DNA of 64,000 nt. Origin: Elsinoe ampelina (lineage: Eukaryota). Both the position numbers and the translations under genes were made by a program. Every line of letters begins with the position of its first letter. The first letter of the stretch is position 1. This document shows, piece after piece, positions 10,862-39,530 of this stretch. Below the pieces are notes generated by a model. It had not been told where the DNA came from. It did not search any database and saw only the letters and a program-made list of their open reading frames with translations. The stretch spans positions 620,001 to 684,000 of the forward strand of contig ML992504.1 in the NCBI GenBank assembly GCA_010093995.1, read 5' to 3'.

Positions 10862-13800
10862 GAAGGGGGAGGACGAGGAGGAGAGGGGGTAGAGGGGTCG
10901 CTTACTGCAGTACGAGTGCGAGCGTCTATCGATATATGTAACAGAGCCTAGGTTGTGGCGAGAAGAATGTCTGTCGGGTCCAGATGGGTGAAATCTCAGC
11001 AGCCAGTGACCTGGGCCTGTTCCATCAATGGAATTTGATGTCTCCCTGTGCTCGTTCCACAACGCTGCTGCTCCGCTTACCTGCGTTCTGATAAGGAGCA
11101 GTGTGTGGAACCCCTTGCTCATGTTGTGCGAATGATCCCATGTATATTCATTCCCAGGCCGAGGCTTATCATGGAGCCATTGCTGCCGTGAGCATAAGTT
11201 GTGCTCGGAAATCTCAAACCAGTGCCAAGTTGGGCTGTGGAAGAATAGGGGAGCTTCAGGGGCGACCACTCCGCCACGACTTTCGCATAACATCAAATCT
11301 GGCTTGATGTTTCTAGGCGAGTGCTTCCGTGCCGATAAGATCGTCGCCGTGGTCGTGGTGCTGCCGCCCTGAGTGAAAAGGCCATTTCCATCAAACTTGA
11401 AGCATACCCCTGAACATGTTTTGCCACCTGACGGCAACAATGCCTCCAAGACTTTCCCAGTACTTCCCCAGTGACTACAGCCATCTGCTACACCAAGACC
11501 CTAAGCCACGTGTCGTCTCCTTCACGCGGCCCTGCATTGTGTCTGAAATCGCCAAAAAAGTTTACCCGTCGACGAGTTTTCGACAAGAGATTGTGCCCAA
11601 CCGTCCAGGACGATGAGCAGACACGTTCTCTGATTTCGCTGAGACTCGATCTCAGGACCTTCTGTGTAATAGGACTTTTGTAGAGCCATGTTAGACAGAT
11701 GTGATAACCCTGCATAAGTCAGACAAGTTAGAATGGGTGACCGGGAAAACCCTTACAACTACACCACGAAACCGATGGAATGACCTGATCAAATGATAAT
11801 AGATATTATATCCTATGACGGTAAGCTAGGATTTTGACAGGTCGGGTTGTGCTTGCGACGTGGGCCGGAAGCCTGGCCCCAGAATTCCTGAGAACAAGAC
11901 GCGGGACCGACGCACCTTCGAATCGCGAGCATCAAGTTGAGTGGTGCAAGCAAGCAAAGCGAAATTGCCGTGTGAGCATTTCCGGAATCCCGAGAAGCCG
12001 AGACATTCGGCTATCTCAGGGGCGCTGAGCTCGTCATCTTTGACGTGGGGTCAATCGATGCTTTCTAATTTTACCTCAACAATCCTGGCAGCCTTTGGAT
12101 CAAGCAACAAAGGTGACGAGGAGAGAAACGATACGGCAAAGGAGCGTGGCAGGCGTGACTCCTTGGGGATGGCAACATTACATTGTCTCTTCAGTATCCA
12201 GCCCGCAGTCACCGGCTGATTGTCCAGAAGTCGTCGCCCTTGAGTTCAGACACAACGAGAGGAAATGTCGGTGGCGCAAATGTAGAGAGACACAGCAGCG
12301 TGCTCGAAGAATTTTTGTTGACGACAAAGAGGAAGAAAATGGCTTTGAAACGAGGGACTTACCATGTTCAAAGCTCCCGAATGAAGCCATTCTGTTCTCA
12401 GCATGCGAGTGCTACGCATGGGGATGCCAATATGCCCTCCACTGGTTTCGCTGGTAGACTTGTAGATGTGACGACGATAAGGACTTTGTATCCCCGTTGA
12501 TGCTCAGGTTTACCTGATGGTCTTGTCAGGAGAAGTAAGAGCTACCAAACATGGAATTTGCGAAAATTTGGTCAGGACGTACAATCTACAGTCTTGCTCA
12601 CTGATTTAATAGTACTAACATTTACCCAAAATCGCAGTGGATATGCCAACAGAGCATCATACGACCAGGACTCTAATACTGAGCAAGTCCGCTCTTCGTT
12701 AAGCACCCTCAAAATTCATGTTGCGCAACTTTTCCAATCACGAGGGCGAAAGTACCCACCAGCAAAGATCTTTTCAGCGAGGGGGAGATGTGGAAAAGTC
12801 GAAAAGTCGGACTTCATATGCATTTGCCCAGATTCATGGACTGAAGTCGGGAGAAGCCGGCCACGTGATCCGACGGGACGACCGACATCACCTTGCACTT
12901 TCATGTGTCCTTCACACTCTGATAACACCTCACCCTACGATATGGATACAATATACTAAGATACACCGCTACGGATACAGCGAAGGAAGAGGAGACGTCC
13001 GACGACAACATTCAGATGTTGACTGCCTGGGCCGTTCTGGTTTCAACGAGGACCACACACGGAGCTTTGGACCCATTCATCCACATAAGCATGTTCGCAT
13101 CATTTCAAATCTTCGTCGTTCGCGATTCCAAGGAGGTCCCGATAGTCTTCAACTCGATGCTGGTAGTTTCAAACCGACAGGACACTGTGCAATCTTGAAG
13201 GCTCGGGTACGGTGGCATGAGCTCTGAAGTCTCGTCGTCCGGAGAGCGGACATTGGCAAGATGGGCGCCGACCACGCGGGTTGAAATGATGGAGCCGATG
13301 TCGAGCAAAGAGTTTAAAGACGATGCGGATTACCATTCGGGCAAAATGGTCAGGAGCTTGAATTCGCTTGGCATTGGAACTGAGGGAATGACCCCTATCT
13401 TATCCCAGCTAGTACTCCCACACACCTCTTTTCATCTGACCGTGCGGAAGGATCCGGTGTCAGCTCGTGTGTGCCAGCAGTCACGCTTTCTCCGCAGAGG
13501 AAGAATACGACAGCAATAGCATAATTGCGATCTTGTGGGTGGCCGGCTTCCACATCTCGCGGGAAAATATGACATAGCATCATCGGAGCGTCGTGCTGCA
13601 GCAACTCCCACAGAGCCGTGTGACGGCAATTCGGAACCTTGCAACTCGTCTCACCCAATGCCACGAGGGAGGCAGCTAGAAATGCAAAGGAGCCCTCTTG
13701 GAGAAGATAAAATTCGACAAGCCTGTGGTTGACTAGCACAACGACAGGGTACAGTCTTTGCATGTCTTCCATGCGGCGTTGAGTGTCCGACAATATCGAC

Positions 13801-34735: not shown

Positions 34736-35342
34736 TTATGGGAGATGGCAGGTCAGAGTATACCATTTTCTTGAAGGAATTTTTACATTCACCACTTGAA
34801 ATGATCTCTTTCGTTGAAGACGGGATGCCAAGACGGTTGCTTTTGTCCTGCCACAGCGCTCGTCTGGAATGTAGATGTCCTCACTGGCATTGGTAGTGTC
34901 CAGTAGGCTCATGAATATGCCTTCGAGCAAGAAGCACATCTGATTGGAATAAGCTTCCTGGCCAATCAGTATCAGGGGGCGGAGGTTCAGAACATTGCCC
35001 TGCTCTACAAGCGTTTTGACGTGCATTCTGCGGCCTTCACGTTTGCATCCAGCAGCGCTCTTTGCCCGATCGCAGACCACCCAACGACTCAGAATGCCAT
35101 GTTGTGAAGACCCACTGCCCACATAGAGTGCAAGAAATGGCCCGTCGTCTCGCGTGATGATACTTAGATAGACGCCACGCTGCTGTAGAAACTCGACAGG
35201 GCAACCTGGGAGAGCTAGCAGATCTTCTTTCGTGATGTTTGGCCTCCCGAGGACCTTTTGGACTTTCCGGAGCCAAGCTCTCAGCTACGCACTCCCAGAG
35301 ATCCGTCCACGTCATTCTTTTCAGGAGGCGGGCACAACTCAA
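34736..35342 (-). pseudogene. Frameshifted GIY-YIG-like nuclease remnant
   Basis: RGVYLSIITRDDGPFLALYVGSGSSQHGILSRW...FLLEGIFM. The upstream part lies in another frame (frameshift near 35265). Confidence 0.45.
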
Positions 35343-36522
35343 TGACAGTGACTTATCATCCGCATCGTGGTTGTACGCTATAGCCTCACGTTTCCAGACA
35401 GTGAAACAATGATGCAGCCTTCTTCGGAAAGCCTGTAGATGGCCTTGCCCGTCATGATCAGCTTCGGCGATACTAGTATAAGCAAGTCGCCACCTCTCTG
35501 GTTCGTTGTTGCCAAGCCTTGCTGAGACCCAATGACGGCGGGGGTTGAAGAGTTGCGCCTCTTGTAGTATGCCTAACCGTGCAGGTTCTCCTGAATCGTC
35601 TTGGATTCTTGGGCTGGAGTGGTGTTGTGCAGTTGTCCCTCGGTAAGCTACTCCGTTCTAGGATGGTCCAGTTCGCGGGCTCTGGAAACATCATTTCTTT
35701 CGAAGCACCAAGGAGGAGACGACCTCTGACCATATTCATACCATCGGAGAACAGATTATCCTTCGAGGATGTGCCTTGCTTTACTGAGCCTATAGCTGAC
35801 TCTTCATGTGCCCAGTGAGCAGCTGATGCGGGTTTCGTGTCAATCGTCTGCGTAGGACTAGCTTCGGTGATTTGTGTGATCGGTGCCTCTATCAATTGAG
35901 ACTTGCTTGGAATAGGCTTCACCTGGTTTGAAAATCCTTCTATAAAGGTTCTCCTTTGGCAAATACCCGGCCAAGAAATCGTCTGCTGCTTCATTGTAGC
36001 TGGATATTCTTGCAAGCTTCGTAGTCTTGACCTTCTGTAACAGTCTAAAGAAGACTTGTTGTTGCTCATTAAGGTCAATATGTCTACGGCCCGGTATCTT
36101 AGACTTCCTCTGATTACGGATTATCCGCTGTTGTTTAGAGCGCCAGATATTCATGTCATGGACAATGTTATCTAACTCCCGATCATAGAGGGCGGTTGTC
36201 TCTTTCCTATACGTGCACTCTAAATACTGGCGTGTCCACTGATGATTTTGCTTGAACATTGTTATGGAATGCTCCCTCGCTGTAAAGTAGACATGAAATA
36301 TGGAAGGGTTTGAAGGAGACAAACCTGGAAGGCGTACATGTTTCCGTCGCCAAGCAATTAGCAGCCTCGTGTATCGATAAAGTCAGAGATAAGGCACATG
36401 AAGAATAGCCTCCGCGATTTTGTCCATCAAAAGTGGTACTTGTGGACATCTGGTTCTCAAACCCCTGGAGTACGTTCGTTATATGCGGACAATCAAAAAC
36501 GGACAGCGAAGAAAAGGAGGAC

Positions 36523-36527
36523 AAAAA
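36523..36527 (-). terminator. Pol III oligo-T terminator of tRNA-Gly
   Basis: TTTTT starts two nt downstream of the discriminator A (36529). Confidence 0.7.
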
Positions 36528-36528
36528 T

Positions 36529-36767
36529 TGCATCCTCCGGGAATCGAACCCCTTTGCTCATGTTAGTAAGTTGAACATGAAATGGAGAAGACAACCCTAC
36601 GGTCCTGCTGCTCTCAAGTCCTTGATGTGAACGTCTTATGGAAGGCACTGAATCTGTTAGGGATCTTCCACCCAATTAAGCAGTTGATACCTACGCAATC
36701 CTACCTTGCTTGGGTCAGTTGGATTCGACTGAGCCGGCAGGGAACCTTACCAATGGACCAAGAATGC
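36529..36767 (-). tRNA. tRNA-Gly(TCC) interrupted by three spliceosomal-type introns and one canonical tRNA intron
   Basis: Exons 36767-36751, 36704-36695, 36647-36639, 36612-36601 and 36551-36529 join to GCATTCTTGGTCCATTGGTAGGATTGCTGCCTTCCAAGCAGCAGGACCGGGTTCGATTCCCGGAGGATGCA (71 nt). All four stems pair; anticodon TCC at 36642-36640. Confidence 0.9.
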
Positions 36768-36888
36768 CACATCGCTTCATGAGAATGATGGCTGAAGAAT
36801 AACATGACTCGAGTTTCGATAGAATATAATACTAGTATTCTCTGGGAAGCGTGCTCGACGCGGCGCTCAGCTTCGCAGGTAGCTGTTC

Positions 36889-37450
36889 ATGGTTTTCCAT
36901 CACCACCACAGACATCATCGACGACCACGACCTTTTGTACATATACCACGACTCAACACTGCAACAAGCAGCCACTATGGAGCTCGGCTGTCACTTCCCC
37001 CCGGTTTCATAGCCGAACTTGCACGCAAATTACCACAGGATCGAAATCATGGGTGCTGCTCAGATCGGACAGGCCTGTAGAAAGTACGTCAACGGCAAAC
37101 CCTACCCCTTGGGCACCTGTGGTCTCGTGGAGACAGCTAGCCTCCGCTTCGAGGGGATTGAAGTCCCCATTGAAAGCGAAACTCCTGACCTCGAGGGCAA
37201 TTGTGGTGCGGACAAATGTCCTGATGGTGCGGATCTCAAGCGCTGCGGTGACTGTAAGAAGGCTCTCTACTGTACCTAGCTGTGCCAGGAAGCCAATTAT
37301 GGTCCTCACAGCAACGACTGTGACGATGTCAAGGCGGATGCACGTGCGAAGAAGGCAGTCGACAACGCCAAAGCCAAGTCAGCTGTAATGCGTCCTTGGT
37401 CCGTCAAGGAATTGGTCCAGTGGAGGGAATGCTGCACCTTTCTGCCATAG
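36889..37450 (+). pseudogene. MYND zinc-finger protein remnant
   Basis: CGADKC...LKRCGDCKKALYCT*LCQEANYGPHSNDC, with an in-frame TAG at 37277-37279 inside the finger. The N-terminus appears frameshifted. Confidence 0.55.
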
Positions 37451-37729
37451 AGCTTCAACATGGCATCTCTCCGGTCGGACAGAACGCTTCAAGGATTATA
37501 GTAGGGACTTGCTAGTCCCCAGGTGCGATGTCAGCAGGCGCCGACGCGATGGACATTATGCATAGATACCCCGATGCGTGCTTAGTCCAACATGAATGCA
37601 AACACATTAACTGCGTCAGCCGTCACTCTTCTCTGATCTTGTGGTGCTCTCAGACAGCGATGCGGTGGCTCGCCACAGCTGAATCCCGTCAGTGTGTTCT
37701 ATGTGCAATTGTCTACATCCTGTCCAGCC

Positions 37730-39058
37730 TCATGCTTTCAGCTCCGCTACCAAAGCCTTGAATCCTTGCAGGAAGTCGGCCTTGAGGTCTACCACGTTCT
37801 CTACTCCAACACTGACTCTAAGTAGCCGTTCATCAACACCTGCATCGCTCATTCGCCGCCACTCTATCAAGCTTTCCACGCCCCCAAGACTCGTTGCATG
37901 ATGGAACAGTTCAAGCTTGCTTGGTAGCCTCTTCGCCATCTCCATCTCCGCAAGGTACAAACCAAATACTGGTCCGAACCCATTTGGCATCTGTCTCGCT
38001 AGCCAATTGTCCTTACCCTCGGTCTGCAACAGCTCCCTCGCCTGCAGACTGGCATGCTCGACCTTCCACACCACCTTCTTCGCCACCGCCCGGACCTCTT
38101 CATCTGCTTCACTGCCCTCTCCCGCCAGACCGTCCAACCACCTCACCAGCTCCTCCGCATTCCTACTCTGCCGCTCCACCCTCAACTCCAACGTTCTCAA
38201 ACTCCTCACCCCGAGCCACCCCTCCAAACTCCCCACCACGCCCCCCAACAAGAACCTCTCCTTGAACAACTCCCAATACGCTTTCTCCGCTCCCTCCTTC
38301 CCCCTCCTCTCCTGCTCCACACTCAACACCCCACACAACAAATCACTATGGCCCCCAAAATACTTGGTCCCAGAATGCATGACATAATCGGCCCCCCACC
38401 TGAACGGCTCCAGCAGCGGCGGCGGCGCAAATGTCGCATCAATACTCAACCACGCCCCCCTCTCATGCGCCCACGCCGCATACTTCTCCACATCAAACGC
38501 CACGCCCGACGGATTCAGCGGCGTCTCGAGGTGCACTAGATCCCCTTTCCCCAGCGCAAATTCGCGCCCGTCCTCCGTCGTGCCACTCCAGGTGGACTTG
38601 TCATGCACGTCCACCACCACGCACGAGGTGAGTTTGCGGTACACGCCCAGCACGCCGTGGCACCCGTGGTAGCCGTCGCCGATGGCCACGACTTTCGGGT
38701 GGAGGTGGACGAGCAAGGCGTGGAAGGCGGCGAGGCCGGAGGCGTAGGTGAGGGTTGGGCCGTGGAGGAGGGAGGAGAGGAGGGTTTCGAGGCGGGTGGT
38801 GTTGGGGTTGGAGATGCGGGAGTAGATGTGCGGTGGGGCTTCGCCGGGTTGTAGGGAGGCGATTGTGCGGAGGTCGGAGGGGGTGCGGGGGTAGCGGTAG
38901 GTGGTGGCGAGGTGTAGGGAGGGGGCGACGTCGGTGGTGTGGGGGGTGTTGAGGATGTCGTCGGCGTGGATGGCGAGGGTGGCGGGGGAGAGGGACGGTG
39001 GGGCGGTGGTATGGAGGGGCGCGGAGGGGTCGGTGGGGGGGATGGGGGTGTCGTTCAT
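37730..39058 (-). CDS. Cys/Met metabolism PLP-dependent enzyme (cystathionine gamma-synthase/lyase-like)
   Basis: YSRISNP, SGLAA, ETPLNP, DATFAPP, HSGTKYFGGHSD (PLP lysine), ATSLGGVESLIE, LLRVSVGVE. Confidence 0.93.
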   Translation of the reverse strand: MNDTPIPPTDPSAPLHTTAPPSLSPATLAIHADDILNTPHTTDVAPSLHLATTYRYPRTPSDLRTIASLQPGEAPPHIYSRISNPNTTRLETLLSSLLHGPTLTYASGLAAFHALLVHLHPKVVAIGDGYHGCHGVLGVYRKLTSCVVVDVHDKSTWSGTTEDGREFALGKGDLVHLETPLNPSGVAFDVEKYAAWAHERGAWLSIDATFAPPPLLEPFRWGADYVMHSGTKYFGGHSDLLCGVLSVEQERRGKEGAEKAYWELFKERFLLGGVVGSLEGWLGVRSLRTLELRVERQSRNAEELVRWLDGLAGEGSEADEEVRAVAKKVVWKVEHASLQARELLQTEGKDNWLARQMPNGFGPVFGLYLAEMEMAKRLPSKLELFHHATSLGGVESLIEWRRMSDAGVDERLLRVSVGVENVVDLKADFLQGFKALVAELKA

Positions 39059-39530
39059 GTTGGTGAGAGGCGCTGGGTGGTGATGTCAAGTCAGGGTGTC
39101 TCGGGAGGATACAGTAGAGGGAGAAGATGGAGGATATATCGAGTCATGGCGTGATTGATAGGGGTCCATCTTTTGTGCGAACTCCGGGGCCGGAAGAACT
39201 CCGAATGCCTCCGATATATCATGACATGGTTCTATTTGCGATGATGACAATGCATTGTGCTACGGGATATCATTGTGAAGAAAAGTCTGACCAGAAATTG
39301 TCCAACAAGGAGATGTTTGGGACCCCAATTTGTGCTAGATTAATTCCGTTCTTCGTGTTAAACACTCCATGAATTTCGAGATGCAAAAATTTCCTTTTTG
39401 GGACATCCTCCGACCTCGGTCATACACACAACACAGTCCAATACGGAACTCCATACAAGAAAGATACTTTACGATATTGTTGAAAGACCCCCAGAAGTGA
39501 CTTGCGAGCTGATCGCTCAATTCCCGCGCC

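Follow-up and report, generated by a model that had tools for sequence, protein, structure and literature searches.

Anatomy of an interrupted tRNA-Gly(TCC) gene

The window analyzed here is a 64-kb stretch of Elsinoe ampelina DNA (GenBank assembly GCA_010093995.1, contig ML992504.1, positions 620,001 to 684,000), and all coordinates refer to it. On its minus strand, positions 36767 to 36529 hold a 239-nt tRNA-Gly(TCC) gene made of five exon pieces (17, 10, 9, 12 and 23 nt) and four inserts (Table 1): three GT..AG segments, which we call introns 1, 2 and 3, and a fourth segment at the canonical tRNA-intron position, between nucleotides 37 and 38. An earlier note, made from the letters alone, had proposed this arrangement. 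We joined the exons by their coordinates in a script and gave the product to ARAGORN, which called a 71-nt tRNA-Gly(tcc) with stems of 7, 4, 5 and 5 bp (acceptor, D, anticodon and T, respectively). The spliced tRNA presents no stem mismatch, a 7-nt D-loop (ATTGGTA) with the conserved GG, and the T-loop TTCGATT; checked by eye, A14, G18, G19, A21 and TTCGA are all present. According to both the reading of the sequence and the ARAGORN call on the joined exons, all the minus-strand coordinates, the four stems and the two loops given in the earlier note are correct. The same is true of its placement of the 26-nt insert: when only this segment is left in, ARAGORN calls tRNA-Gly(tcc) i(37,26), and the G at position -3 of the segment could pair with C32, as read from the sequence. 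Regarding the GT..AG segments, branch-like sites stand 10 nt before the 3' AG in intron 1 (ACTGAC), 9 nt before it in intron 2 (CCTAAC) and 11 nt before it in intron 3 (TACTAAC), with distances counted by hand.

Table 1. Features of the interrupted tRNA loci in the window (X1 is one of the runs described in the next section, and its contigs are given as numbered records)
Feature	Coordinates	Strand	Description
Exon 1	36751..36767	-	17 nt; acceptor 5' strand, U8, D-stem 5' strand, D-loop to G18; covered by X1 contig record 1 with 0 differences
Intron 1	36705..36750	-	46 nt, GT..AG; D-loop between G18 and G19; starts GTAAGG, ends AAG
Exon 2	36695..36704	-	10 nt; G19-A21, D-stem 3' strand, position 26, first 2 nt of anticodon stem
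Intron 2	36648..36694	-	47 nt, GT..AG; anticodon stem between positions 28 and 29; starts GTAGGT, ends CAG
Exon 3a	36639..36647	-	9 nt; remaining anticodon-stem 5' strand, anticodon loop to A37; anticodon TCC
37/38 intron	36613..36638	-	26 nt; canonical tRNA-intron position; ARAGORN i(37,26)
Exon 3b	36601..36612	-	12 nt; A38, anticodon-stem 3' strand, 4-nt variable loop, first 2 nt of T-stem
Intron 3	36552..36600	-	49 nt, GT..AG; T-stem between positions 50 and 51; starts GTAGGG, ends AAG
Exon 4	36529..36551	-	23 nt; rest of T-arm (B-box GGTTCGATTCC), acceptor 3' strand, discriminator A73
T5 run	36523..36527	-	RNA polymerase III terminator-like; starts 2 nt after the discriminator base; more T4/T5 runs at 36515 and 36499
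5' leader	36768..36777	-	10 nt; X1 record 1 ends at 36777; abutting record 3 begins at 36772 with sixfold depth
tRNA-Val(AAC)	11631..11773	-	exons 11773-11757, 11709-11689 and 11666-11631; found by remove-and-scan
Val GT..AG segment	11710..11756	-	47 nt; D-loop between U17 and G18; starts GTAAGG, has TTCTAAC and TCTGAC, ends CAG
Val 37/38 intron	11667..11688	-	22 nt

As long as the inserts are in place, the gene escapes detection. ARAGORN found 0 tRNA genes in the unspliced locus and in the whole window, with the intron search on or off. Rfam gave 0 matches at the raw locus at the gathering score and, at E<=10, only three weak matches between 36300 and 37000, none of them in a tRNA family. The expectation that standard tRNA scanners would miss the locus is hence confirmed for both programs. 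We then defined an intron-like segment as a GT..AG stretch of 40-65 nt with a GTRNG start and YTRAY near its 3' end, removed every combination of one to three neighboring segments, and ran ARAGORN on each product (remove-and-scan). On the plus strand, 116 segments in 191 combinations gave 0 tRNAs. On the minus strand, 150 segments in 296 combinations gave 15 matches, 14 of which are variants at the Gly locus (the exact combination of the earlier note included), while the remaining one lies at a second locus near 11.7 kb, a tRNA-Val(AAC). When 60 dinucleotide-preserving shuffles were treated in the same way on both strands (~133 segments and ~206 combinations per strand), 0 tRNAs appeared, against two loci in the real window, which excludes chance. 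The split tRNA-Gly structure is real, and far beyond chance. Relaxed scans of the window revealed no third hidden tRNA, either with single GT..AG segments of 30-150 nt (29,720 + 29,256, a total of 58,976) or with segment pairs (150,372 + 135,855, a total of 286,227). The B-box motif alone is without significance, with 1 match in the window versus 0.69 expected.

We also looked for relatives of the gene outside the window. A metagenome scan with the 3' exon returned a contig (L001) as its sole match, and no interrupted relative. Positions 55-125 on the minus strand of this contig, which comes from a GC-rich organism, hold an uninterrupted 71-nt eukaryotic tRNA-Gly(TCC) with a long T run right after the gene. 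The spliced Gly product is identical to it at 55 of 71 positions, with no gaps, and all 23 nt of exon 4 are identical. Prokaryote genome contigs scanned for exon 1 followed by the intron start, with the Gly and then the Val sequence, gave 0 matches.

The three GT..AG inserts had been likened to the mRNA introns of the window in size and signals, and this likeness is borne out. With a heuristic that joins reading frames, we obtained 32 candidate mRNA introns that do not overlap one another; in 11 of them, the open frames on either side are both 100 codons or longer. Of these 11 best-supported introns, nine measure 44-56 nt, and the 3' ends inspected carry branch motifs of the CTAAC/CTGAC type a few bases before the AG. 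With 46, 47 and 49 nt, the Gly segments fall inside this size class of the host, as does the Val segment (47 nt). All three Gly segments have GT..AG borders and a GTRNG start, and the Val segment is also bounded by GT..AG. A minor difference concerns position +6, where three of the four tRNA segments, counting Val, have a G and 6 of the 11 best-supported mRNA introns have a T.

Regarding the origin of these segments, we considered the introner idea and found no other copy longer than 14 nt of any of the four in the window, so none of them is a repeated element there. Intron 3 aligns end to end with a stretch of its own gene that begins at G19 and takes in the whole 37/38 intron (36601-36647 and 36695-36704). 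Its score is attained by 2 of 500 shuffles, although among 253 other intron-like segments of the window there are 6 that do as well against this stretch; no such alignment was obtained for introns 1 and 2 or for the Val intron. An origin of intron 3 by internal duplication of the gene's own sequence is hence a weak lead. In general, reverse splicing into tRNAs or such duplication may be the source of the tRNA introns. All four GT..AG segments begin with a string near that of tRNA positions 19-26, and the D-loop introns of Gly and Val show a weak resemblance to each other (z = 2.5).

Contigs over the locus and related tRNA loci

Four runs were compared with positions 35800-37800. The runs are nine in all, every one of a kind that is unrecorded or guessed, and X1 is labelled 'RNA? 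(a guess: may be DNA)'. Contig record 1 of X1 (2109 nt, depth 29.9) aligns as 36777-36695, 36647-36600, and 36550-35800 and onward, with 0 differences over the ~880 nt aligned. It omits 36648-36694 (47 nt), which is exactly the predicted intron 2, and 36551-36599, where a cut shifted by +1 fits equally and corresponds to 36552-36600 (49 nt), the predicted intron 3. Both omitted parts read CT..AC on the plus strand, and both joints have 48 nt on the shorter side. The same contig, lacking introns 2 and 3, retains the 26-nt 37/38 intron. As for the other runs, X3 and X6 have no contig over the tRNA locus, and X2 has only a contig of a paralogous locus (see below) and a 202-nt piece at 36348-36549; they are evidence neither way.

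We read X1 as RNA because the depths of its contigs differ, its coverage breaks at 36772-36777 and its share of words fits the loss of introns. The abutting contigs have depths of 29.9, 179.1 and 318.8. At the break, where record 1 reaches 36777 and record 3 sets in at 36772, no 31-mer connects the two. The share of sampled words found in X1, 0.91, is by our arithmetic what remains after the loss of the words over two introns and over the coverage break. These data partly support, at the RNA level, the removal of introns 2 and 3 at the predicted GT/AG borders, X1 being taken as RNA from its depths.

One could argue that X1 is DNA, and that its joints come from a strain or allele without introns 2 and 3 (a presence/absence polymorphism) and not from splicing. 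The kind of the run is indeed a guess, and the compared stretch offers no mRNA intron as a control, yet DNA would leave unexplained why abutting single-copy contigs lie sixfold apart in depth (29.9 vs 179.1), why coverage breaks between them, and why the omitted parts have exact GT..AG ends. Besides, the flanks in X1 are identical over ~1.9 kb, while the other runs differ at 36078. We therefore consider this explanation very unlikely. The difference at 36078 is an A>G change present in X2, X3 and X6 and not in X1, and may be strain variation between samples. At 37680, a contig of X6 stops in a loose end of T8, which marks the poly(A) site of a minus-strand gene for a cysteine/methionine-metabolism pyridoxal phosphate (PLP) enzyme (37730-39085; Pfam PF01053, E = 3.1e-59); X6 at least is RNA, because this loose end is the poly(A) tail of the neighboring minus-strand gene.

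The contig also bears on which enzyme cuts the inserts. All four could be removed by the tRNA splicing endonuclease (SEN) through motifs like the bulge-helix-bulge (BHB), as in Cyanidioschyzon merolae, nucleomorphs and archaea, and the GT..AG ends would then be coincidental. Multi-intron tRNA genes with introns in the D-loop, the anticodon stem and the T-arm do exist in those lineages, according to sections of one source (PMC3978253). At the Gly locus, intron 1 shifted by 3 nt, which gives the same product, reaches h/H/h' = 2/4/3, a sum of 9 that exceeds the 95th percentile (8) of random borders. However, the helix of this shifted intron 1 consists of three G-T wobbles and one T-A pair, and at the GT/AG borders the central 4-bp helix has 3/4 pairs in intron 2, 1/4 in intron 3 and 2/4 in intron 1. 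The test itself discriminates poorly here, as the 37/38 intron also fails its strict form (3/1/2). In their size and in the spacing of GT, AG and branch motif, all three segments resemble mRNA introns, and the X1 contig lacks two of these introns while the 37/38 intron, the true endonuclease substrate, stays. Removal of all four inserts by the endonuclease is thus extremely improbable.

A paralogous Gly(TCC) locus of the same organism, outside the window, is represented by record 2 of X1 (1287 nt, depth 318.8) and record 6 of X2 (287 nt). Two parts of it match the Gly locus: one, with 2-3 differences, corresponds to 36751-36781 (31 nt, made up of 14 nt of 5' flank and exon 1), and the other, with 1 difference, to 36600-36620 (21 nt, in which exon 3b is joined by the final 8 nt of the 37/38 intron and an additional base). 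At its loose end the 17 terminal nt of exon 4 recur, and the trailer that comes after them is a different one, with a T6 run. The paralog is without intron 3. Between its matched parts there are 87 non-aligning letters, compared to 130 at the Gly locus and 37 expected with the 37/38 intron alone, and the surplus of ~50 letters has the size of one more GT..AG intron. On the question, raised in the earlier note, of whether the genome has any uninterrupted Gly(TCC) gene, the answer is partial: the second locus lacks intron 3 but has 87 letters where 37 are expected, and the gene scan covered the 64-kb window. The conservation of matched exons next to inserts that differ between the two Gly loci fits selection on the tRNA, judging from the alignments, and gene conversion could mimic it.

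The tRNA-Val(AAC) found by remove-and-scan carries its GT..AG segment in the D-loop (U17|G18), one nucleotide off the site of Gly intron 1 (G18|G19), and this segment contains a T4 run. Both tRNA loci of the window are thus interrupted, with 0 of 2 detected by ARAGORN and none by Rfam, and no uninterrupted tRNA gene was found in the window by ARAGORN with the intron search on. Taken together, the Val(AAC) and the second Gly(TCC) loci suggest that GT-AG introns in tRNA genes are a habit of this genome and not a single accident.

Transcription signals and proposed maturation

In the DNA of the Gly gene, the A-box (positions 8-20) is intact because the first 3 nt of intron 1 repeat those of exon 2, and a B-box is present (both judged against the consensus motifs). 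No run of T4 or longer occurs inside the 239-nt gene. RNA polymerase III (Pol III) usually starts on tRNA genes ~10 nt upstream of G1, and 36777, where record 1 of X1 ends, would be a transcript start 10 nt upstream of G1. The A-box, the B-box, the T5 run, the lack of an internal T4 and an RNA start near -10 fit Pol III; the read-through of the T5 run fits RNA polymerase II (Pol II) or read-through. The contig may stem from a Pol II transcript, from read-through, or from two overlapping transcripts that the assembler fused, because it passes the T runs and the 202-nt contig of X2 lies downstream of them.

Several side observations concern the same region. At 36772-36777, the two X1 contigs overlap by 6 nt only, with a sixfold difference in depth, and this looks like two divergent transcript starts. 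A TATA-like string is found at ~36824-36831, ~55-65 nt upstream of the tRNA 5' end. Within intron 1, positions 36721-36729 of the minus strand hold a 9-nt B-box-like string, GTCGAATCC, ~31 nt after the start of the A-box; with a rough chance of ~0.05 this is a hint only. It recalls the intron of fission-yeast U6, which has an internal B-box. Downstream of the tRNA, four overlapping open reading frames (ORFs) in different phases occupy 34736-36382 on the minus strand; record 1 of X1 covers 35800-36382 and is long enough to span the rest. None of the four (0/4) has a Pfam family, and the region may contain a gene that is lineage-specific or degenerate, or else yield a non-coding transcript.

We consider it probable, with moderate confidence, that the locus is a functional nuclear tRNA-Gly(UCC) gene that needs both the spliceosome and the tRNA endonuclease. 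The gene would then combine an ordinary anticodon-loop intron at 37/38 with spliceosomal introns of the U2 type (GT-AG) at three sites, one each in D-loop, anticodon stem and T-stem, the roles of the spliceosome and of SEN being suggested by the signals and positions of the inserts. A minus-strand transcript would begin ~10 nt upstream of the tRNA. The spliceosome would take out introns 2 and 3, whose loss is seen in the X1 contig, and then intron 1; removal would be sequential because exon 2, with its 10 nt, leaves no room for two spliceosomes to work on introns 1 and 2 at once. The cloverleaf could fold only after that. RNase P and RNase Z would trim its ends, SEN and a ligase would remove the 26-nt intron, and CCA would be added. 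The INTERMEDIATE, an RNA that is without introns 2 and 3 and holds intron 1, may be what sequential removal would leave. Besides, the presence of the 37/38 intron once GT..AG introns are gone fits its later removal by a different enzyme, one that needs a folded tRNA body. The claim of the earlier note that this tRNA needs both the spliceosome and SEN is in this way compatible with the state of introns 2 and 3, which are gone at their exact borders while the 37/38 intron stays, and meets a difficulty in intron 1, which is retained in that contig.

A number of points weigh against this functional reading. Intron 1 (36705-36750) is kept in record 1 of X1, the sole contig covering it, and no joint or loose end is listed at its borders in the runs compared; contigs show presence and not absence, and the retained copy is no proof against its removal. 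The evidence of splicing comes from one contig of one run, whose kind (RNA) is guessed, and the 2 kb compared hold no well-supported mRNA intron that could serve as a splicing control for X1. No mature or fully spliced tRNA was seen, and contigs of ordinary runs cannot show a mature tRNA. In the DNA, the A-box and the B-box lie ~210 nt apart, far from the usual spacing. Record 1 of X1 continues at least 730 nt past the T5 run, through T5, T4 and T5 runs, and the spliced RNA may thus come from Pol II as a long transcript, with the tRNA pieces as no more than its leader. An intact Gly(TCC) gene is possible elsewhere in the genome, the scan having covered the 64-kb window. Finally, the Val tRNA has the T-loop ATCGAGT, with A54, and its first downstream T run (T6) lies 72 nt past the 3' end; by these features of its sequence, the Val locus may be decaying.

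Many of these points would be expected if the locus were a relic tRNA gene in the 5' leader of a Pol II transcript, with ordinary leader introns being spliced, no functional tRNA released, and intact genes supplying the tRNA-Gly(UCC). A 2109-nt contig that spans 36777 through the T5 run to 35800, the X2 contig downstream of the T runs, the retention of intron 1, the TATA-like string upstream, and a Val locus with A54 and no nearby terminator all agree with such a relic. A dead gene, however, should have drifted, whereas the removal of three independent insertions restores a tRNA to the nucleotide with its conserved loop bases intact, and the aligned parts of the paralog are near-identical while the introns differ or are absent. 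The T5 run directly after position 73 and the lack of any T4 or longer run in the 239 nt are also at odds with a relic. Moreover, the mRNA that would act as 'host' is unproven, with no Pfam family in the downstream ORFs, and a contig across two transcripts is no proof of a single RNA. In view of both sets of observations, we regard the relic as unlikely, though worth weighing.

If the Gly gene is functional, the spliceosome might be an obligatory maturation enzyme for several tRNA families of this fungus (two Gly(UCC) loci, Val(AAC) and probably others), acting before cloverleaf folding and protein-only splicing, and perhaps on Pol III transcripts as for fission-yeast U6. The true tRNA set of the genome would then be invisible to scanners. 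We put this forward tentatively, as a possibility.

Comparison with known splicing systems

The two nuclear splicing systems are kept apart in textbooks and current reviews, with the spliceosome serving mRNAs and a few small nuclear RNA (snRNA) and rRNA genes. A tRNA that needs both systems would break that division, and tRNA supply would depend on spliceosome activity. It would also be a natural setting in which to test whether splicing works on Pol III transcripts or across internal exons as short as 10 nt. As it stands, tRNA gene counts for such genomes are wrong (0 of the 2 tRNA genes of the window were found by ARAGORN). The contrast between the two systems is likewise drawn in passages of a 2023 tRNA review (PMC10275265). 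The statement of the earlier note that no case had been described in tRNA agrees with the literature that we searched, which yielded no description of spliceosomal introns in tRNA genes (most subscription journals lie outside its coverage).

Spliceosomal introns in ascomycete rDNA were reportedly described by Bhattacharya et al. in 2000, as cited in PMC5855946. The Gly locus is like them in that spliceosomal-type introns sit in a gene not transcribed by Pol II, and unlike them in that the hosts there are rRNA genes transcribed by RNA polymerase I.

Several interruptions within one tRNA gene are known from the multi-intron and permuted BHB tRNA genes of Cyanidioschyzon merolae, Ostreococcus, Thermoproteales and DPANN archaea, and the disrupted cases in the sections of the source at hand are BHB-based only (PMC3978253). 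As in the Gly gene, their cuts fall at several non-canonical sites (D-loop, anticodon stem at 27/28, T-stem at 50/51, T-loop) and make the genes invisible to scanners, sometimes affecting most tRNA genes of a genome, as the same sections report (PMC3978253). In contrast, BHB introns are there described as defined by structure and cut by the endonuclease, without GT-AG ends or a branch site, and introns 2 and 3 of the Gly gene show no convincing BHB.

Regarding the canonical eukaryotic 37/38 introns, these are removed by SEN and a ligase, according to the portions of two sources (PMC10275265, PMC13149111). The 26-nt Gly segment is like them in its position, in the possible C32-G(-3) pair and in being kept in the X1 contig after GT-AG introns are gone. 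The three GT-AG Gly segments differ, being sited where, on the account given in those portions, the SEN ruler does not cut (PMC10275265, PMC13149111).

The closest parallel is offered by snRNA genes. Parts of one article (PMC5855946) describe spliceosomal introns in U6, U2, U5 and U1 snRNA genes and in rRNA genes, name no tRNA, and discuss reverse splicing as their origin; the examples given there include the U6 of Schizosaccharomyces pombe and other fungi, and the U2, U1 and U5 of Rhodotorula hasegawae, with mRNA-type introns (PMC5855946). Like those fungal genes, as far as these parts describe them, the Gly gene presents short GT-AG introns with branch sites in a small, structured non-coding RNA gene, and several introns per gene are possible. 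The U6 gene is, in addition, transcribed by Pol III, and the origin proposed for its intron in the same parts is reverse splicing into an abundant RNA. Unlike in the snRNA genes, the host here is a tRNA, a molecule outside the spliceosome and with a protein-only splicing system of its own, and one RNA would need both. By analogy, the introns of the Gly locus probably behave as do the mRNA-type introns in snRNA genes of fungi, although their host belongs to an RNA class for which the literature searched has no report. If so, tRNAs, which are abundant and are not parts of the spliceosome, would be added to the few kinds of non-coding RNA in which spliceosomal introns have been acquired, and this would bear on the question of intron origin.

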